Source of the DNA: a virus | IMG/VR virus record: IMGVR_UViG_3300022916_000008 | Location: 1-64,000 of that record | Direction: 5' to 3' (one strand) | DNA length: 64,000 nt | Shown here: positions 1 to 38,467 of the stretch, piece after piece | Position numbering within the stretch: the first letter of the stretch is position 1 | How the letters are laid out: each line of letters starts with the position of its first letter | Notes under the pieces: generated by a model | Databases searched by the model: none | What the model was told of the DNA's origin: nothing | Seen by the model: only the letters and a program-made list of their open reading frames with translations | Program-made: the position numbers and the translations under genes

Positions 1-405
1 AGCTGCTGCAAATGTAAGACCTGTTAATATCTTATTCCCTGCCTGACTCTTGCTCCAATCAACATTATGAGTATTACTTGTCATCTTGCCAGTCTTGGTG
101 TCCATAGCCATCTCAGAGCTATCTGAAGCCTTCCTTCCTGATATAGATGTAATCGGTAGGTTATGAACCCTAGTCAGCTCACCTGTCTCAGGATCTCTTA
201 TAACAGGGTGATAATACTTGCCACTAGCATCACGTCTTGGTGGTGGAAATGATTCAAGATAGAACCGATCATCTTCTAATGTTCCATATTGATTCTTCTC
301 ATAACTATCCAGATCCTTTACCCTCATCGGCTTTCTTCTGACAAATGGATTCTTTAGATACCTTTCCCCATCTTGATATTTTGGTAATTGTTTCTTCTTA
401 GCCAT
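1..405 (-). CDS. Virion cargo/ejection protein, N-terminal part (runs off the window)
   Basis: Not in the ORF track. ATG at 405, open to position 1: MAKKKQLPKYQDGERYL... Lies directly after the muzzle gene, as crAss-like cargo genes do. Confidence 0.55.
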   Translation of the reverse strand, partial: MAKKKQLPKYQDGERYLKNPFVRRKPMRVKDLDSYEKNQYGTLEDDRFYLESFPPPRRDASGKYYHPVIRDPETGELTRVHNLPITSISGRKASDSSEMAMDTKTGKMTSNTHNVDWSKSQAGNKILTGLTFAAA

Positions 406-458
406 AACACACAAATTGACCATAGCTTTCACCATAGTCTTTAATTAAACCATTATCT

Positions 459-3400
459 CTATTTATAGCTCTTCTGGAGCATAGCATCATATTTATGCAT
501 ATAAATCTCATATTGTTCTGTAATAGAATTACTGTATACAAACCGTATTACTATATATTTACCTCTAAAGAAACTCTTCTCATACCAGCGCTTACTCGCA
601 TTGATATTACTTGTAATTACCTTAGTGTTATCAGTTAATACTGAAGCATTTGTTCCGGTTGGTATACCTTTATCTTGATTTATTATTTGATTCGCATAAG
701 TAATGACTATGTCCTTAAAGTCATTGAATCTCCATGTACCTTCTGTGCTCTTGACATTAGCAGAACTAAGGTCTATAACACCGCTACACTGATTCTCGCT
801 GTAGATTAACAGCTTTGTAAATGTCTTTCCGTAGTAGTTTGTTCCATTGCTGTCAAATACCTCAGTTATCCACTGGAAAGCATCAAACAGCTTGTTTGTG
901 TCAAGGCTTGTTACCTGACCTGTTGTATAGTCTACACTTGTATTGATTACATACTCCACATAGAATTCATCTGGATTGTTTTGATCATAATACCTACCAT
1001 ACTTATTAGCAGTATTATGCTTATACATTTTTGCCCCTAATGAATAAGTAGGCTTAATGGCTGACATCAAGTTCTTATCATTCCTTAACATCATTGAAGG
1101 GATATAGCTATGATACGACCTCCACTCCTTTGTATTAAGAGAAAAGGTCATTGTCCATGACTTATCCGTAAATAGCCCTGAAGGGTTGGTGTCTAAATCA
1201 TATATGTTCGAATAATCAATTGCGTTCCATGTCGCTAAGGATGCATCGTAGTGAGCCATATAGTAGCCGTCAAGAGGAGAACTGAACTCTATTAACCCTA
1301 AGTCCCCATCGACAAGTACGCCTGTCCCATAGCCCTTAAACTTAAGTATGTCTTTAATCTCCACATCTCTCTTTGACATAATAATCCTATTGTACTTCTG
1401 ATCGTATTCGATATGAATACCGACCCCACCAACATTATTATCAAAGGTAATCTCAGGGTTACTTATACTAATAGATACCTGCGCCTTTAACTTGCTTGGC
1501 AACTCTTCTTTAAACCATATTCCAGCATTCCCTGATATATCATTTAGTTTACCATCATATAAGAATATCTTACCCAATTCTTGATTGACATAAACATATC
1601 CTATTGGTAGTTTTTTACAAGACCATTGGCTTGTACATCCTGCGAATCCATCCTCAGTAATTGCCTGCTCTTGTGGTTCTAATGAAAATAGGTCACCACT
1701 ACCTATATAAGTTGTTATCTCATCCAACTGTAACTTCTTACTTCCAATAGTCTTAAATATTGCCCTTGATGTATTCACAAGAAGTTCATCATTGATATTA
1801 ACTACGTTCCATACCTCTCCTCTTGTACTTGGCATATCATGGTAGTTGTTTACCAAAAAGTTCTTCCAGTTCTCAGCCAACTCTTCCTGTGATGATGCTT
1901 CACTAACCATTAACCTATTTGGAAAGTGCGTGGTTGTTGCTGAAACTAAAGGCGTTGGTATTGCCCTTGCCATATCATTAACAGCACTGTAGTCTATATT
2001 GTAATCAAAGATATTGGCTTGTGTGTCTATATCGTCACTGAGATATGCCGCCCAATCACTGGCATAAGGGCCGTATTTAGGCCAATAAGCTGCATCAGAA
2101 GAAGTGCTCAATGAGTCGGAATACCTAAGCCCTATATTTGAAGTAGCTATACAAGGAAACCAGTATAAATAACGCTCAGAATGTGTTGGATTGCCTTGTG
2201 TTGCTGGAGTAAATGAGCCACTATCCTCTATCGTCCTAAAAGCATAGTCTGTATTAAACACATCACCACCGCCAGTAATTGTCTTTGTATATGTTCCTAA
2301 AACATCAATGTCAATATCATTACCAGTATCATACAACTCTTGTGACTGAAATGGAGAATACATGTCTTGCCTATATACACAAGCATTAGTAAGATAGTAA
2401 TATGGTTCTAAATATGATTCTCCACGCCCTTGCTTTGATATGCCAGGGTATCCTACTGTTGGTACACTAACCTCTCCATAATATCTCCTTTCATGCATGT
2501 CTTCACCTAATAACAAATCATCCTCATGTATAAAGTTTTTCAATGCGCCTATACGTGTATTATCCGATGTAGTATATACATCTGGAACAGGAGCTGTGAT
2601 GTCGTACATGGAATAATAACAATTAAAGACTGAGCCTCCAACCGAAGAATCTCTTCCCTTAAATTTATATAAACATACATTCTCGATATAAGAAGCCATA
2701 GGTGGAAGACTGTTGGTCATCATATCAAAAGAGTGAAAAGCAAATTGGTTATCAGAATCACTATAATAAAGACTTTGGCCAAGAATAGTAGAATTGTTTG
2801 TACTCCTCTTAGCTATATATACATGCATCTTTTCAACCTGGATTTCTATTTCTTCTGGAATAACTATGTTTTCAAGTTTAATGCTACATACAGAAGATGT
2901 CTTTGTTGTTTCATTATACCATCCTCCTGTCTGACATGGCATTTTATGATGTCTTACATTTAGTCCATGTAATGAAGGTGCAACACTTCCTGTCTCATTT
3001 CCTACTCCAGTGAATCCCCATACCTCCCAATTGCCATCTGGATCATTGGCAAGCTCAGGATATTTCTCATTAGCATTTTCCCAAAAACACATTTGCGTTT
3101 TATTGTTTGACGTATCTCTTGTATGGAAGTACTTAATATTACCTGGATCGATTAAGTCATCTGCCTCAAGATAGTTTAATGCTGGATCAAGACTTATTAT
3201 ATCCCTCATTGTAGCATCTTCTGAGAACGTATTTCCCCCCACAGTAATATTTTGAACTTCTCTCCCCGGAACAGGATAAGCATAAGTTCTATTTCCATTT
3301 TTAAGTGTAAACCCTACATATACGGCATAGACTTCGCCAGGCATAAGGCCCTTATTGTTTATAATAAAGACACTATCTTTAAAATTAGTTAATGAATACT

Positions 3401-4502
3401 CTTCATGTTGAGTAGTAGTAAATACAGGAGCAACTGTAATACTGTTTGCATACTTCTGATAGTCTATATCTTCAAAGCCTTCTAGGTTCCCAAAACCTAA
3501 CTTGTCATTTAATGTAAAGATGGTCTTAGCCTTCTTATATGGTGCTGTCTGTGCAAGGTAACTCGTTAGTGGAACTGCAGTATCTGTTTCAAAGCCTGAG
3601 AATATCAGGTTTACGGATGATGATGTGATTGCTACCCTATAAAATAGGTACACGCTCTTCACACTATTGATACGAGATATATATCCAACGTTTAAGAATG
3701 AATATCTTTCATCAATATCCGATATTGTTATTGCTACCGACTTAGTTGTTGTTGTCCCTGCTTCGCATCCATCATACTCATACCATTGAACTGAAGACTT
3801 GTCCTCTGTAATAGTTAGTGGTTTTGTTGGTGAACTGTAATTGGTAAGGCTTGTGTTACCATCTTCGTAAGCAGTAAAGAACTGATAAGCTCCTGAAGAC
3901 AATTGCCCCCCAGAATCATTCACTTCGTCTACTGTTATTGTTGGCACATCATACTCAGGATATACATCTATAAGGGTAAGTTCAGATAAGGTATTTGGAA
4001 TAAGTGTGGCAGGATCTACTCCGCCTTTAAAAGGGAGGTTGTCAAGATTAAGTATACGCATATGATTAAGATCATCTGTCCATGATACTATTATCTCTCC
4101 ATTCTTAATCTTTGCCTTTGCTTGTATTTGATGAAACTGTGAGAATCCCATGTCTGCCCTTAACCTATGTTCATAGACTCCATTATTATGAAGTACTCCT
4201 ATAGAGTCAAGAGCGCCTGTTTGGTAGTCCCCCTCTGTGCTTTTTGTCTTTGCCAAGAACAATACATTTCTTGTCTCATCAACATTGACATTTCCTATGC
4301 ATATAAGGTCTGTAGGAAGTGCTGTAGTGGATGTTTCGGTAGTTCCTGTAATAATCTTAGTAATGAATAAACTAAATCCCTCCTCGTTGCTTACAGAGCC
4401 TATAATCTTATCAAAGTTCGCATTAAGCGCATCAACTGGATATGTATCTGGCTGATTAAGCTTCTTTGCATTAAGAAATAAACCTTTACCAACACTCTTC
4501 AT
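459..4502 (-). CDS. Tail muzzle / tail stabilization protein (crAss-like)
   Basis: 1347 aa, beta-rich. Has the GEVYAxYxxF, VRHHKMP, WxSYHSYxP and FRGKY motifs typical of crAss-like muzzle proteins; follows the ring protein gene. Confidence 0.8.
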   Translation of the reverse strand: MKSVGKGLFLNAKKLNQPDTYPVDALNANFDKIIGSVSNEEGFSLFITKIITGTTETSTTALPTDLICIGNVNVDETRNVLFLAKTKSTEGDYQTGALDSIGVLHNNGVYEHRLRADMGFSQFHQIQAKAKIKNGEIIVSWTDDLNHMRILNLDNLPFKGGVDPATLIPNTLSELTLIDVYPEYDVPTITVDEVNDSGGQLSSGAYQFFTAYEDGNTSLTNYSSPTKPLTITEDKSSVQWYEYDGCEAGTTTTKSVAITISDIDERYSFLNVGYISRINSVKSVYLFYRVAITSSSVNLIFSGFETDTAVPLTSYLAQTAPYKKAKTIFTLNDKLGFGNLEGFEDIDYQKYANSITVAPVFTTTQHEEYSLTNFKDSVFIINNKGLMPGEVYAVYVGFTLKNGNRTYAYPVPGREVQNITVGGNTFSEDATMRDIISLDPALNYLEADDLIDPGNIKYFHTRDTSNNKTQMCFWENANEKYPELANDPDGNWEVWGFTGVGNETGSVAPSLHGLNVRHHKMPCQTGGWYNETTKTSSVCSIKLENIVIPEEIEIQVEKMHVYIAKRSTNNSTILGQSLYYSDSDNQFAFHSFDMMTNSLPPMASYIENVCLYKFKGRDSSVGGSVFNCYYSMYDITAPVPDVYTTSDNTRIGALKNFIHEDDLLLGEDMHERRYYGEVSVPTVGYPGISKQGRGESYLEPYYYLTNACVYRQDMYSPFQSQELYDTGNDIDIDVLGTYTKTITGGGDVFNTDYAFRTIEDSGSFTPATQGNPTHSERYLYWFPCIATSNIGLRYSDSLSTSSDAAYWPKYGPYASDWAAYLSDDIDTQANIFDYNIDYSAVNDMARAIPTPLVSATTTHFPNRLMVSEASSQEELAENWKNFLVNNYHDMPSTRGEVWNVVNINDELLVNTSRAIFKTIGSKKLQLDEITTYIGSGDLFSLEPQEQAITEDGFAGCTSQWSCKKLPIGYVYVNQELGKIFLYDGKLNDISGNAGIWFKEELPSKLKAQVSISISNPEITFDNNVGGVGIHIEYDQKYNRIIMSKRDVEIKDILKFKGYGTGVLVDGDLGLIEFSSPLDGYYMAHYDASLATWNAIDYSNIYDLDTNPSGLFTDKSWTMTFSLNTKEWRSYHSYIPSMMLRNDKNLMSAIKPTYSLGAKMYKHNTANKYGRYYDQNNPDEFYVEYVINTSVDYTTGQVTSLDTNKLFDAFQWITEVFDSNGTNYYGKTFTKLLIYSENQCSGVIDLSSANVKSTEGTWRFNDFKDIVITYANQIINQDKGIPTGTNASVLTDNTKVITSNINASKRWYEKSFFRGKYIVIRFVYSNSITEQYEIYMHKYDAMLQKSYK

Positions 4503-22368: not shown

Positions 22369-23856
22369 TTATGCTACTAAGCTTAATCTTAAGCAAGCAG
22401 ATGTATCAAAGATATTAATTCCTTGCTCAAATAAATACTCTAAACTTGCAGAGTCTTTGTCTGTAGCAACAAAATTAGTACTTCCATACTGTGAAGGTAA
22501 AGTTGCAATACCGGCTACTACTTTACGTACCATTTCACGACCCTTACGAGTTACCATCTTGACGTTAGGAATACCATTGTATGTACTCAAGTCAAGGAAG
22601 ATAAATTCACCACTGAATGAAGGCAAGCCCTCATACTTTGGATAGTTCCTGTGAATAAGGTCAAAGACAGGATTTCTATGAACTGTAATAGTATGTCCAT
22701 CTCTTGTCTTGTATGTATTGAAGTATGCTCCTAAAGATAACTTATCACCATTCTTAGTCACAAAAGTATTCTGTGTCTGCTCTGTAGTGAAGTATGACTT
22801 TAATTTGTCTTGCATTGCCTCGTTGAAAATACGCATACCCAATGTACCTGTATGTAATTGAATGTGCTTCTTCTCTGCACCACTAATACCATAGAACAAT
22901 CTTGTAGCAATCTGCTCAAAACGTTTGGCTGTTAGTTGTCCAGAATATGTTTCAACATTAGTGATCTGGTTAAGGATGCCGTCTCCACGCAAAATAGGTT
23001 TGCCACTTGGGCCACGCTGAGGAACTGTTCCATCAGGCATACGGTTGTACTCGCTTGTCCAATAGTCAATCTCTTTATACCTTCTCATTTTCATTAAGAA
23101 CTGCCACTCTGCCCAATCCATCCAATACTTAAAGGTAGTTACACCACCGCCACCTTGACGCATAGGCATATCAAACTTTACTTTATCGAATTGTGCTGAT
23201 GCTGAACCACCAATAGGTAGTGCTGCAATATGACCTGCAAATTTCATAGATGAACGTAGAGTCGTAAGTTGATTCTTTGCCCTTCCAGGATATTGCTGTT
23301 CTGTTTCAACTCCTACTGATTCTTCGTATTCAACAGGAGATGCTCCTCTTTCCCATTCAATGCCTGCTGCAAGATCTGTAGCTGGTACTGTGGCTAAAGA
23401 GTTATTACCCATGATCTGAAGTAAATAATCATAGTTTTGCCCATTGGCTTTTGGTTGTTCTGCAATCCTACACACAACTCCCGAAGGTGATGTAATAAGG
23501 TTTTGGAACTTAAAGCGTCTGTGCTTAAAGGTTACTTGGAATAATGAGAAGCCAAGGCCAGCATTTGTTGTTGTTGTTGCTGTTACTACTGAATCCATTG
23601 GGTCCATATCTCCCTTCATAATTGGGTACTGATACTCAAATGAGTCAACGTAATCTACGTTACCCACTCCTTCAGTAAGTTTTGATATGGCAAAGTCCTC
23701 TGGATAGTAATAAGTACCCATAGCCCAAATGAGTGCATTTGAAATCTCACTTGGTCGTGTCTGCATTGCATTCACAATAGATTCATAATCAAATAAACCT
23801 TTATCGTTTTGGTAAACCCCATGTACTTCTAACTGAGGTGATACTGCGTTTGTCAT
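22369..23856 (-). CDS. Major capsid protein
   Basis: 495 aa; NQLTTLR, GDGILNQI, LHTGTLGMRIFNEA, NPVFD and FIFLD motifs; follows the scaffold gene. Confidence 0.9.
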   Translation of the reverse strand: MTNAVSPQLEVHGVYQNDKGLFDYESIVNAMQTRPSEISNALIWAMGTYYYPEDFAISKLTEGVGNVDYVDSFEYQYPIMKGDMDPMDSVVTATTTTNAGLGFSLFQVTFKHRRFKFQNLITSPSGVVCRIAEQPKANGQNYDYLLQIMGNNSLATVPATDLAAGIEWERGASPVEYEESVGVETEQQYPGRAKNQLTTLRSSMKFAGHIAALPIGGSASAQFDKVKFDMPMRQGGGGVTTFKYWMDWAEWQFLMKMRRYKEIDYWTSEYNRMPDGTVPQRGPSGKPILRGDGILNQITNVETYSGQLTAKRFEQIATRLFYGISGAEKKHIQLHTGTLGMRIFNEAMQDKLKSYFTTEQTQNTFVTKNGDKLSLGAYFNTYKTRDGHTITVHRNPVFDLIHRNYPKYEGLPSFSGEFIFLDLSTYNGIPNVKMVTRKGREMVRKVVAGIATLPSQYGSTNFVATDKDSASLEYLFEQGINIFDTSACLRLSLVA

Positions 23857-33413: not shown

Positions 33414-33586
33414 AGAATTGTAATTGTAGACCGAACGTTATTGCTAACGTTGCTAAAGTAAATAGCAAGGGATTTATAGAGAATACCATAGGTTATGCAG
33501 ACCACTCTTAGTAAGGACATTCACCTAACTCTATTGGAACGAGGACAGCATTAAGTGTTGGTGAACTACTTACGATGATAATGATT

Positions 33587-33783
33587 GAGGATATGGTGAA
33601 ATGGTAGACACGCACTATCGGGTGTGAACGGATTGTCCAGAACTGGAATAAAGAGGTCAGGTAAACAGGTAGACCAGAACAGTCCGCAATTTAAATGTTG
33701 ATGAAAATATTAACGATGGTCCTCTTCGGAGTGCTGACTAACATCAATTATAATTCGTACAGGTTCGAGTCCTGTTATCCTCA
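33587..33783 (+). ncRNA. tRNA-like RNA (Leu-type D arm) with a large structured insert
   Basis: Acceptor GAGGATA/TATCCTC+A; D arm GGTGAAATGGTAGACACG; T arm ACAGG-TTCGAGT-CCTGT; 197 nt; no 7-nt anticodon loop. Confidence 0.75.
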
Positions 33784-33804
33784 CTAACCTAAATAAAGAC
33801 TGAT

Positions 33805-34221
33805 ATGTATACAGGAAGCGGATTGCCCGGAAGTTATGTTAATATCAAGCCATTAGACAATAAGATTGTTTGTTATGGCTATAATTGTGAATGTACTATT
33901 CTTGCTGTTGTAAAAGTACAAGGTGAGACTGATTCATTTGGTGCAGAGTATTCTTACTATTGCCATGATTGTCATGAATTGTGTAAGCAAGCTGATCAAG
34001 AGTTTCGTGAAGAACTGGATAATTGTGATTGGTGTAAGAAAGAAGCACAACTATCACCAACTAGAGATTGGGAAGAAGGAATGAACGGACCTGTTTATTA
34101 TGTTTGTAATGAATGTAATAGTAAACAGAACCGTGAAATGATGGAAGAGTATGAAACCATGTGTAATGAATTAGATTTTCAATCAGCTATGGAAGTAGCA
34201 CAAACATTAGAACAGTCATGA
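33805..34221 (+). CDS. Cys-rich zinc-finger protein
   Basis: CHDC, CDWC and CNEC pairs. Confidence 0.55.
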   Translation: MYTGSGLPGSYVNIKPLDNKIVCYGYNCECTILAVVKVQGETDSFGAEYSYYCHDCHELCKQADQEFREELDNCDWCKKEAQLSPTRDWEEGMNGPVYYVCNECNSKQNREMMEEYETMCNELDFQSAMEVAQTLEQS

Positions 34222-35060: not shown

Positions 35061-35232
35061 GGGAATATGGTGGAATGGTAGACACGCTACATTAGTAGTT
35101 GAGCAAATAAGGTAGCTCCTTACAAACAGAGAACTTTGACATATAAAGAATGTACGGTCTTTGTGTTGATGAAAGTATCTGAAGACTATAGACAGTAGTT
35201 GCTCAGTTCAGGTTCGAATCCTGATATTCCTA
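35061..35232 (+). ncRNA. tRNA-like RNA (Leu-type D arm) with a large insert in the variable arm
   Basis: Acceptor GGGAATA/TATTCCT+A; D arm GGTGGAATGGTAGACACG; T arm TCAGG-TTCGAAT-CCTGA; insert closed by TGAGCAA/TTGCTCA; 172 nt. Confidence 0.75.
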
Positions 35233-35675: not shown

Positions 35676-37937
35676 ATGGAAATAACTAAGAAAGAAATCA
35701 TGACAAATAAATTATTAGAAAAAGCAAGAAATGATTATCCCACAGGTACAGAGTATTATCCTGCTCATTTAAGCGGAGAAGAACATACTTTGTGTACTGT
35801 AGGTAATCCAAACACATTTCATGTCGATAGCTCAGGAGATGTTTTAGAAAGCCATGGTGATAAACCCAAGAATGGTCATCTCCTTTCTGAAATTATTTAT
35901 CATAATGACATAAAGAAATGGGCTGAGATTAAATCAAAGCCAAATGATAAGGACTGGTGGAAGACTGTTGCAGTAGGAGACATCATTGCATGTACTGAAA
36001 CAAAAGGCCGAGGTGGTTTAGGTTTCGAGCCAAATGAAGTGTTTAGAGTAAGGGGGATTGATAAGATGCCTATCCATGCCATATTCTTTAAGGTTCAAGA
36101 AAACAATGTAAAGCCTGATGGAGTATACCAAGATGAGATACGCAAAGCAACACAAGAAGAGATCAATGCATATAAAGCAAAATTGGGCGGTGTGAAGCCA
36201 TTATCTCCTTCAAAGGGTGCAAACACTCCAGGATTTGATAAACTCGTCTTAGAAGCGAGGAAAAGGTATCCTGTTGGAACAAGGTATGTATGTCTTCATG
36301 ATTGTGGAGAAGGGAAGATTGAAACAGAAGATGATTTCCTTTTAAGAAAAAATGAAGACTGTATAAGGACGAATAAGGGCACTCGTTGTTGCTGGAATGG
36401 TACAGATTGGGCTGTTATAACAACTCTTCCAGACGGAGTAATGGCAAGGGCTATCAAGCAATATTCCATTGGTACTGTCATAAATGATCCAGGTCCAAAT
36501 AAGATAAGAAGAGCAAAAGTAGTACGTACTCCTAAACAACTACCAGATGGAAATGTTGCAGGAGGTAGTGGATATATATATCACGAAGGAGTTTGGGCAG
36601 AGATCGTTAAAGACGACAACCTTACTATCAATGATTTAGTAAAAGGAGAGATATACTATCATTATTGTGAAAACTACAAGTATATTATTAAGTTTGATAA
36701 ATTGGATGGTAAGCAAATCATTGGGAAGTGTTCTATCTCTCTTAATAGTAATAAATTTGATCCCGGTACTTATCGTAATACTGGTGTTAAAGAATTACGT
36801 GTTGCTACTACAGATGAAAAGAGGTGGTTGAACGCATGTATAGACAAGGGTAGTTTTGTAAGCATGGAAGACGCACTTAAAACAAAACCAATGAAATACA
36901 AGTTAGGACCCATAAGGTTTAAAGAAGGTGTTAGTAAAGGATGTACGCCTGAATATGAAACAGAATATGGAGGCGATATCCCAAGAGATAAGATTGTTCA
37001 TGGTACTACCGAGTTACATGATGAGTATACTGCAGAGATTGTGGACTATCATAATGAGTATTACATTGTCAGATTTCTTGATAGCAATAGCCATTACACT
37101 CAACTTGGATTCTTAGAAGATGCGTTAGAACCTGTTGGAGTAGAAGATGTCATTAAAGTAGGTGACTATGCTATTATGACTAAAGCAGGTGGTTGGGGTT
37201 ATGACGAAAGAAACAATGGTTGTCTTGCCAAGGTCACTGAAGTAAGTACAAAATACGTTGATGGTAAAAACAGGTGTTCAATTAATGGAGAAGTAATCAA
37301 TCCAAGAATCAAACAATGTTTAAAGTTTTCAATTGTTCCGCAGAATACTGATGATATAGGCGAGGTATGGCGTAAGGCAACACAGGCTGAAATAGATGCT
37401 GTAGTCAATGATGTTTCCACATTAAAGAAGAAAGAGGAATATTTTATTGGTAGCTATATTGTCTGGATAAAGAAGCCAAGCGGAAATGCTGAGGTAGGAG
37501 ATATAGATAAAATAATATCACAAGAAGATCGCTTTCTTCATCTTAAAAAATATGGTTCATGTTGTAAAAGTAGAATCCGAGATAAGGAAGTAAAATGGTT
37601 TGCTACACTTGAAGAAGCACAACTCTATACTTTAAGGATAGCCAAGGATAAAGAATTCGTAGTTGGCGATTGGATCACACTGGATGGTTGGAAACGTGCT
37701 TATCGTATAAAGAAGGTGCTTGTTCATGATTATGTCCTTGATTGTGAGGAAGGGGATGATATTGGAACTTATCTTAAAAAGAATGGGTTTAGATATGCTA
37801 CCAGAAATGAAATAGAAGGTAAGTTTGTACCTCGGGATGAAATAACTTCAGCTAAAACAAACATTAAGAGTACTGGTCCAGACTTCTCATTGAAAGAGGA
37901 GCCAGAAATAACAAAAGGAATCGATTTAATTAATTAA
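35676..37937 (+). CDS. Large modular repeat protein
   Basis: Three A..YPxGT...WAEI modules and five [RF]xATxxE[IKA] module ends. Confidence 0.65.
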   Translation: MEITKKEIMTNKLLEKARNDYPTGTEYYPAHLSGEEHTLCTVGNPNTFHVDSSGDVLESHGDKPKNGHLLSEIIYHNDIKKWAEIKSKPNDKDWWKTVAVGDIIACTETKGRGGLGFEPNEVFRVRGIDKMPIHAIFFKVQENNVKPDGVYQDEIRKATQEEINAYKAKLGGVKPLSPSKGANTPGFDKLVLEARKRYPVGTRYVCLHDCGEGKIETEDDFLLRKNEDCIRTNKGTRCCWNGTDWAVITTLPDGVMARAIKQYSIGTVINDPGPNKIRRAKVVRTPKQLPDGNVAGGSGYIYHEGVWAEIVKDDNLTINDLVKGEIYYHYCENYKYIIKFDKLDGKQIIGKCSISLNSNKFDPGTYRNTGVKELRVATTDEKRWLNACIDKGSFVSMEDALKTKPMKYKLGPIRFKEGVSKGCTPEYETEYGGDIPRDKIVHGTTELHDEYTAEIVDYHNEYYIVRFLDSNSHYTQLGFLEDALEPVGVEDVIKVGDYAIMTKAGGWGYDERNNGCLAKVTEVSTKYVDGKNRCSINGEVINPRIKQCLKFSIVPQNTDDIGEVWRKATQAEIDAVVNDVSTLKKKEEYFIGSYIVWIKKPSGNAEVGDIDKIISQEDRFLHLKKYGSCCKSRIRDKEVKWFATLEEAQLYTLRIAKDKEFVVGDWITLDGWKRAYRIKKVLVHDYVLDCEEGDDIGTYLKKNGFRYATRNEIEGKFVPRDEITSAKTNIKSTGPDFSLKEEPEITKGIDLIN

Positions 37938-38408: not shown

Positions 38409-38467
38409 AGATGTGTAGCTCAGTTGGTAGAGCTTTTAGGTCGTGGGTTCAAGTCCCACCACATCTA
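38409..38467 (+). ncRNA. Minimal tRNA-like RNA lacking the anticodon arm
   Basis: AGATGTG-TA-GCTC AGTTGGTA GAGC-TTTT-AGGTC-GTGGG TTCAAGT CCCAC-CACATCT-A; all three remaining stems are perfect. Confidence 0.75.

Follow-up and report, generated by a model that had tools for sequence, protein, structure and literature searches.

A tRNA-framed phage RNA with a doubly pseudoknotted domain at the variable-arm position, and its relatives in viral and metagenome contigs

The DNA analyzed here is a 64,000-nucleotide (nt) stretch, positions 1 to 64,000 of the IMG/VR virus record IMGVR_UViG_3300022916_000008, and is referred to as the window; the whole record is 90.9 kb long. A 197-nt RNA gene, named T1, lies on the plus strand of the window at 33587-33783 and consists of a full tRNA frame around a large middle. 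The middle is a domain of ~130 nt with two sub-domains, in which six nested helices and two pseudoknots (PK1 and PK2) are backed by covariation. Judged by its position, this insert is an overgrown variable arm. The parts of T1 are as follows, in window coordinates, with pairing and covariation counted in a model-based alignment of 28 distinct sequences; T2 is a paralogous element described further below.

33587-33593, plus strand: 5′ strand of the acceptor stem, GAGGAUA; 7 of 7 pairs form with 33776-33782.
33596-33611, plus strand: Leu-type D arm GUG-AAAUGGUAGA-CAC with a 3-base-pair (bp) stem, A14 and G18G19; recognized by a D-arm string match.
33612-33625, plus strand: remnant of the anticodon arm (the stub), a 4-bp stem GCAC/GUGU with a 6-nt loop UAUCGG; the inner stem pairs covary, and T2 has compensatory changes.
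33626-33628 with 33754-33756, plus strand: base helix GAA/UUC, which encloses the entire insert where a variable-arm stem would stand; 98.8% paired, 3 of 3 pairs covary.
33629-33636 with 33679-33686, plus strand: helix H1, CGGAUUGU/ACAGUCCG, closing domain 1; 99.5% paired, 5 of 7 pairs covary.
33643-33646 with 33674-33677, plus strand: helix H2, CUGG/CCAG; 95% paired, 6 of 6 pairs covary in the family alignment.
33698-33703 with 33742-33747, plus strand: helix H4, UUGAUG/CAUCAA; 99% paired, the two outer pairs covary.
33721-33733, plus strand: hairpin H5, CCUC-UUCG-GAG(U)G, in which the U at 33732 is bulged and invariant; 90% paired, with covariation in 3 pairs.
33655-33660 with 33734-33739, plus strand: PK1, GGUCAG/CUGACU, 6 bp; 100% paired in the 28 sequences, 4 of 6 pairs covary.
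33617-33620 with 33714-33717, plus strand: PK2, AUCG of the stub loop with CGAU; the 3-bp core is 91% paired, 3 of 3 pairs covary.
33759-33775, plus strand: T arm ACAGG-UUCGAGU-CCUGU with a canonical T loop; the stem is compensatorily changed in T2.
33776-33783, plus strand: 3′ strand of the acceptor stem, UAUCCUC, pairing with 33587-33593, and the discriminator A73 (33783); CCA is not encoded.

The features of a tRNA-Leu frame, namely acceptor stem, D arm with G18G19, UUCRANY T loop and A73, are all found in T1, although they are variable or lost among its relatives. U8 is also present. The pair at position 3 is G3-C70, and G3-U70 is absent. The Leu-type ends, the A discriminator and the missing G3-U70 pair had been pointed out in a first-pass annotation of this DNA, and all of them were verified at 33587-33783. 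Over 100 phage genes of tRNA size in IMG/VR share the 20-nt D-arm string of T1. They measure 73-87 nt, almost all of them have A73, and they are presumably tRNA-Leu genes, as assigned from the string and the size and not from the anticodon. Because the D-arm string and the gene sizes fit tRNA-Leu, the T1 frame is taken to be of the leucine (class II) type. Acceptor stems of the relatives vary in sequence but keep their complementarity. The stub of the relatives has 3-5 bp, and the clear-stemmed ones have a 7-nt loop of the U-A-N-N-G-G type.

The fold of the insert was derived by comparison. Overall, 93.4% of the paired cells of the alignment hold a pair, against 70.6% in shuffles and 29-43% when the partners are slid by 1-3 columns, and 30 of the 42 pairs show changes on both sides. 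H1 is modeled as 7 bp across the family and has 8 bp in T1. The inner pairs of H4 were fixed by the search pattern, and the near-invariant AAAAUAUUAA stands directly 3′ of the H4 5′ strand. The hairpin CUC-UUCG-GAG within H5 spans 33722-33731. Its loop is expanded by up to ~40 nt in relatives; in the T1-type members L225, L266 and L277 (L numbers denote loci), the enlargement is 20-40 nt.

PK1 links the domain 1 loop to the domain 2 internal loop, with a family consensus of AGUnGG paired with CCnACU. Its 5′ strand is followed by a conserved GUAAAC and its 3′ strand by a conserved AA. PK2, 3-5 bp long, forms between the stub loop and the 3-4 nt that follow UUAA[C] in domain 2, and in clear-stemmed stubs it engages loop positions 34/35 to 37. 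At least seven PK2 partner combinations occur (for example, UGG/CCA, UAG/CUA, AAG/CUU, UCG/CGA, ACG/CGU and UGC/GCA), to which independently found members add AACG/CGUU and GUG/CAC. These pseudoknot counts were not fitted, because the model behind the alignment contained neither PK1 nor PK2. With PK2, the old anticodon loop is occupied internally and therefore cannot read a codon.

Single-sequence thermodynamics gives a different picture. The minimum free energy (MFE) of T1 is no better than that of shuffled sequences (z = -0.58), and the predicted long-range pairs disagree with the comparative fold. The case for the T1 fold thus rests on comparison. Two domain 1 hairpins of the single-sequence fold were rejected, as homology favors H2 (CUGG/CCAG) instead of CCAG-AA-CUGG, and PK1 instead of GGUC...GACC. 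For the insert domains, the observations of the first-pass annotation are confirmed, with a correction inside domain 1. The stub, both closing helices and the UUCG hairpin lie where it had placed them and show compensatory changes among the 28 homologues, but the inner hairpins it mentioned without specifying them, likely those drawn by single-sequence folding, give way to H2 and PK1. As a whole, the domain resembles an aptamer or a core that binds protein, with its two pseudoknots, A-rich invariant joining strands and insertion-tolerant H5.

Homologues were collected by pattern searches. A domain 2 pattern yielded one IMG/VR relative (L141), a stricter pattern yielded about 30 true relatives in metagenome contigs, and a different pattern yielded five further members in IMG/VR contigs, which keep both pseudoknots and bring in new pair types. 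Distinct homologues of the insert total more than 30 in metagenome and IMG/VR phage contigs. The pattern by which most of them were retrieved holds 23 nt of domain 2 constant. Because the search pattern for most members included both runs, the invariance of UGAUGAAAAUAUUAA and CUAACAUCA is in part built in; the sequences retrieved by the second pattern, which prescribed no more than a portion of the first run, nevertheless contain the two runs.

The ~160-nt core was modeled from 25 seed sequences including T1, giving the covariance model R1. T1 matches R1 over its full length (1-159) at 99.6 bits with an E-value of 6e-17, as a seed member. The other family members score 112-158 bits, making T1 the most divergent full-length member, and the best scorers are the L215 and L242 versions. 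Among 50,697 cultured phage records, blastn gave no match for T1 with its flanks or for the L215 element. In representative bacterial genomes, one per species, the core pattern matched just twice, both times falsely and inside coding DNA.

The comparison with Rfam matched T1 to no family; such a match had been named in the first-pass annotation as an outcome that would refute its interpretation. No match to T1 reached the gathering level window-wide, and scanning 10 kb and 251 nt at E ≤ 10 gave no credible one. The best results of the 251-nt scan were a 13.2-bit 3′ tRNA fragment, against a cut-off of 29, and small nucleolar RNA (snoRNA) noise at E-values of 3-4. A catalogue of 10,006 candidate structured RNAs from IMG/VR mentions tRNA-like candidates (PMC10690425). 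Full-text literature searching gave no description of the T1 family, whose presence among the candidates of that catalogue could not be checked. The T1 family and its architecture, in which a variable-arm domain clamps the anticodon loop, are in neither Rfam 15 nor the literature searched.

We conclude that T1 is a real gene for a structured, non-decoding RNA. ARAGORN finds 0 genes in the window with default settings, and the gathering score of the Rfam tRNA model (RF00005) is not reached. A decoding tRNA would present its anticodon in a free 7-nt loop on a 5-bp stem; the T1 stem has 4 bp, and its 6-nt loop pairs with 33714-33717 and covaries with that partner across the family.

An alternative is that T1 is an intron-bearing tRNA gene, from which a decoding tRNA would result once the insert had been spliced out. 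With the -i option, ARAGORN does call T1 a tRNA-Pro(CGG) with a 106-nt intron, using an anticodon stem formed by GCACU and a distal AGUGC. In addition, the phage tRNA-Leu genes L052 and L097, on viral contigs, have the same D arm as T1 and carry long inserts directly behind the anticodon-stem region. These inserts, several hundred bases with an open reading frame (ORF), probably represent introns or homing-endonuclease insertions. On the other hand, the register called for T1 is inconsistent with that for T2, which is called a tRNA-Thr(AGU) with an 81-nt intron despite the common D arm. The long-range stem GCACU/AGUGC was rejected on this conflict and because AGUGC overlaps the covariation-supported H5. 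A covarying helix anchors the insert at the variable-arm position and not in the anticodon loop, where a group I-type insertion would lie, and without the insert a stub would remain in place of an anticodon arm. Changes in the 'anticodon' go along with changes in its internal partner. To our knowledge, 106 nt is far below any self-splicing intron. Neither a group I core (RF00028) nor a group II intron matched at E ≤ 10 in the 10-kb and 251-nt scans, in line with the earlier remark that no group I core is recognizable.

Splicing was also looked for in two metatranscriptome contigs, from RNA libraries of two studies, which cover 33532-33773 and 33603-33757 and are colinear with the DNA, having no joint. 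Removal of the insert to give a normal tRNA had been named beforehand as an outcome that would overturn the assignment, and none is seen in these contigs, which span the unspliced gene at a shallow depth of 3-5; they show only that the form seen is unspliced. Taken together, an intron is extremely improbable.

Several other identities were considered and rejected. Transfer-messenger RNA (tmRNA) does not fit the G3-C70 pair, the full D arm and the lack of a conserved tag frame, as H5 indels disrupt every reading frame, and ARAGORN finds none. A C/D-box or K-turn reading of UGAUGA...CUGA fails since the CUGA lies within PK1 and is unconserved (CCAACU, GCAACU, GUCACU), and the snoRNA matches are noise. 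A 30-codon ATG frame from ~33696 to the TAA at 33784-33786 is broken by H5 indels in relatives, where substitutions preserve the hairpin. Resemblances to a hammerhead or to the R/S boxes of group I (UGAUGA, GACUA) are in the wrong order and context, and Rfam support is absent.

The relatives of T1 were informative about what the frame is for. T1-type cores are found in frames of many differing sequences. Most framed relatives keep A73, but in about a third of them the discriminator is U (L208, L209, L239), G (L211, L220) or C (L218). Several have non-canonical 8-nt T loops with the core intact. The T arm is absent in L213, L216 and L244, where a closing helix only is left around an intact core, and in L240 a hairpin with an oversized loop stands in its place, again with the core intact. 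The L244 core (4113-4313, plus strand) has an 11-bp closing helix and recurs as an identical sequence in L279, L291 and L340. It is flanked by tRNA-Arg and tRNA-Gln within an array of 15 tRNAs on a 175-kb contig, and the processing of the neighboring tRNAs would set its ends. Two further T1-type members, L212 (2031-2235, plus strand) and L233 (1621-1819, minus strand), have an extra hairpin inside the D loop.

These variations bear on whether T1 is an aminoacylated mimic. In this alternative, host leucyl-tRNA synthetase (LeuRS) leucylates T1, and the charged end serves as a decoy for toxins or enzymes that target tRNA acceptor ends, as an amino-acid donor or as a ligand of the translation machinery. 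Bacterial LeuRS identifies its tRNA by A73 and the tertiary core, not by the anticodon. T1 has A73, U8, A14, G18G19, the canonical T loop and the D arm of the presumed phage tRNA-Leu, and A73 is kept in most framed relatives. Because T1 keeps all leucine-type features, charging of T1 itself is conceivable. However, the role of the domain cannot depend on leucylation generally, because relatives lose A73 or the T arm, the latter in four lineages, yet keep the core; the 8-nt T loops and the unencoded CCA also speak against charging. We thus consider an aminoacylated mimic unlikely. A further variant was conceived in which leucylated T1, with PK2 as an in-cis codon-anticodon helix, could enter the ribosomal A site without mRNA. 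It would then be a functional counterpart, free of protein, to tmRNA-SmpB or to the pseudoknot with which a dicistrovirus internal ribosome entry site mimics an anticodon, and the phage would use it to manipulate or rescue host ribosomes. We place very little weight on this variant.

One contig carries several frames side by side. On the 13.3-kb IMG/VR contig of L141, six tRNA-framed elements occupy 157-3099 on the minus strand, with unrelated middles of 82-203 nt, one of which is T1-type. The six frames have near-identical acceptor and T arms (AGUCAGG... / ACAGGUUCGAAUCCUGUCCUGACUA), and small ORFs are interspersed among them. This arrangement has the appearance of a cassette system in which the frame stays constant. 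The first-pass annotation had proposed a tRNA scaffold displaying a functional RNA domain; a covarying pseudoknotted insert in more than 30 sequences, differing frames and exchangeable middles agree with that description. Separately, L034 (616-728, minus strand) and L087 (7881-7993, minus strand) have 113-nt Leu-type frames with a middle that is seemingly a different pseudoknot. There, AUGUUAU/GUAACAU encloses a GUGG/CCAC hairpin, and UAAGA may pair with the UCUUA of the hairpin loop. In L087, a second framed element of 121 nt adjoins the 113-nt one.

Two sister elements were found in the window itself.

35061-35232, plus strand: T2, a 172-nt paralogous Leu-type frame with another payload of ~100 nt; Rfam tRNA 36.5 bits with a 92-nt insertion.
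38409-38467, plus strand: T3, a 59-nt tRNA frame without an anticodon arm; Rfam tRNA 51.5 bits, in a match that skips this arm.

In T2, 24 of the first 27 nt are identical to the T1 frame, and the acceptor and T stems have compensatory changes. The T2 stub, GCUAC-AUUA-GUAGU, is compensatory to the T1 stub. The T2 payload is closed by UGAGCA/UGCUCA, and the MFE z-score of T2 is -2.5. T2 was rejected as a member of the T1 family because only UGAUGAAA.UAU and GACUA are common to the two and R1 has no match in T2 at E ≤ 10. T3 comprises an acceptor stem, a D arm, a UUUU linker in place of the anticodon arm, an AGGUC variable loop, a T arm and A73. An ORF stop lies 9 nt ahead of it, and the next ATG follows after 18 nt. 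Eight other IMG/VR contigs (L368-L375) contain frames of this armless design, at 58-62 nt, with differing but complementary acceptor stems.

T1, T2 and T3 share one plus-strand block of replication-type genes, and the gap from the 3′ end of the element to the next ATG is 18-21 nt for all three. The frame could then be pure punctuation, a cleavage signal between genes, with an insert that has no role of its own. The location of all three elements between co-oriented ORFs, the bare T3 and the recurrence of its design in the eight phage contigs would fit this explanation. However, an insert without a role would not keep 42 pairs (30 of them compensatory), two pseudoknots and invariant single strands in more than 30 divergent phages, and the core survives where the frame is lost. 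Punctuation by itself is accordingly judged quite improbable.

The rest of the genome gives the setting. The source phage can be placed among the marine crAss-like viruses from its sequence. A Crassvirus major capsid match (PF23898, 4e-64) lies at window 22369-23856 on the minus strand, a single ORF of 6492 codons lies at genome 62875-82353 on the minus strand, and DNA of the phage is present in many seawater metagenomes. No ordinary tRNA gene was found across the 90.9-kb genome. The host is probably a member of Bacteroidota. A scan for sigma-70 promoters and terminators, the coverage of which leaves out Bacteroidota, gave results at or below shuffle expectation. No relatives of the phage were found via the neighboring proteins encoded at 33805-34221 and 35676-37937.

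T1 is co-oriented with its neighbors, and 21 nt separate it from the same-strand ORF at 33805-34221. Thus, T1 could instead be a cis-acting leader, a riboswitch or translation element controlling that ORF. A same-strand ORF follows 13-42 nt downstream in T1 and in 10 of the 22 relatives examined, and the pseudoknotted fold with A-rich joining strands is like many aptamers. At the other 12 of the 23 loci, however, no ORF lies within 100 nt or the element is inside a tRNA array. The downstream ORFs are not homologous. When all ORFs lying within 3 kb of 30 family loci were compared with one another, no conserved neighbor protein family emerged, the only clusters being spurious ORFs antisense to the RNA. 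Nor is there an apparent alternative terminator or a helix that would mask the start site. A leader role is very unlikely. Because the operons are co-oriented and the ORFs unrelated, the RNA must be cut from a longer transcript and is not the leader of one gene family.

We favor, with a probability of roughly 60%, that T1 is a non-decoding RNA derived from a class II tRNA, in which the frame is a processing and stability scaffold and the knotted payload acts in trans. T1 would be transcribed within the plus-strand operon of the phage, presumably with the timing of its replication genes. Host tRNA enzymes would release it, with RNase P cutting at 33587, a 3′ tRNA-end nuclease cutting after 33783 and CCA being added, and the tRNA frame would keep the RNA stable. 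The knotted domain would be the working part, acting in trans on a protein or small-ligand partner. The frame would be a reusable vehicle, as T2 has a paralogous frame with another payload, T3 is bare and related phages have six middles in one frame. A processing and stability scaffold is the most likely role of the frame because relatives lose the T arm or A73 and unrelated middles share one frame.

Several points weigh against this proposal. The conservation at the 23 pattern-fixed positions of domain 2 is partly by construction, and the payload role of the domain is deduced from conservation. T1 retains every Leu-type feature, which a mere scaffold does not strictly need. At their depth of 3-5, the RNA contigs of T1 could include DNA carry-over, and rare forms are dropped by contigs; one of them extends 55 nt upstream of the mature 5′ end.

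T1 can be compared with several known systems. Class II tRNA-Leu (RF00005) likewise has an acceptor stem, D and T arms and A73, and a helix stands at its variable-arm position too, but its variable arm is 13-21 nt against ~130 nt in T1, which lacks a 5-bp anticodon stem and a free anticodon. In tmRNA as in T1, a tRNA-like top half is combined with a large pseudoknotted body that replaces the function of the anticodon arm, but the topology differs, as the body of T1 lies in the variable arm.

Phages T5 and T4 encode RNAs of a similar kind. RNA1 of T5 (rna1, AY543070 30501-30644), 144 nt long, is annotated as 'tRNA-like stable RNA with unknown functions'. Like T1, it is phage-encoded, with a Leu-type D arm (CCGGAAUUGGUAGACGG), a canonical T arm and an acceptor stem, and it has no usable anticodon and a large structured middle. 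Unlike T1, which has a stub and an expanded variable arm, its anticodon arm is lengthened and its variable arm is ordinary-looking. It lies in a tRNA cluster, whereas the T1 phage has no ordinary tRNA gene, and R1 finds no similarity in the T5 locus. The species 1 and species 2 RNAs of T4 (rnaC and rnaD, AF158101 70908-71171) are, like the T1 kind, small stable phage RNAs, encoded beside tRNA genes, and rnaC ends in a T-arm-like hairpin CCGGG-UUCGAAU-CCCGG. In contrast to T1, they have no Leu-type D arm and belong to the tRNA cluster of a T4-type phage. The best R1 result in the T4 locus is 13.5 bits (E-value 2.2), elsewhere than in rnaC and rnaD. T1 represents a new form within the known, unexplained kind of 'phage tRNA-like stable RNA', which takes in T5 RNA1/RNA2 and T4 rnaC/rnaD and is a descriptive kind and not a homology family.

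The tRNA-like stable RNAs of T4 and T5 have gone without explanation for decades. The T1 family, being widespread and having a covariation-backed fold with two pseudoknots and a constant frame with exchangeable payload, provides a testable system, and it merits an Rfam entry whether the frame is a scaffold or the RNA is charged. If T1 is a charged mimic, it would represent a new interference with translation or with tRNA-directed defenses. If the frame is a scaffold, the payloads of T1, T2 and the six L141 elements would form a reservoir of functional RNAs, perhaps aptamers, decoys or regulators of early infection.

In an engineered tRNA scaffold, a structured foreign RNA is placed in a tRNA frame, processed by tRNA enzymes and spared degradation. 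Its working logic is, by analogy, the one suggested for T1. In the engineered scaffold, the payload replaces the anticodon arm, whereas T1 is natural, carries its payload at the variable-arm position and has it pair with the leftover anticodon loop. The 'tRNA scaffold' technology for recombinant RNA expression is referred to, as dating from 2007, in a passage of PMC3401473. If T1 does work as a scaffold, phages would have long preceded biotechnologists in this recombinant-RNA trick.

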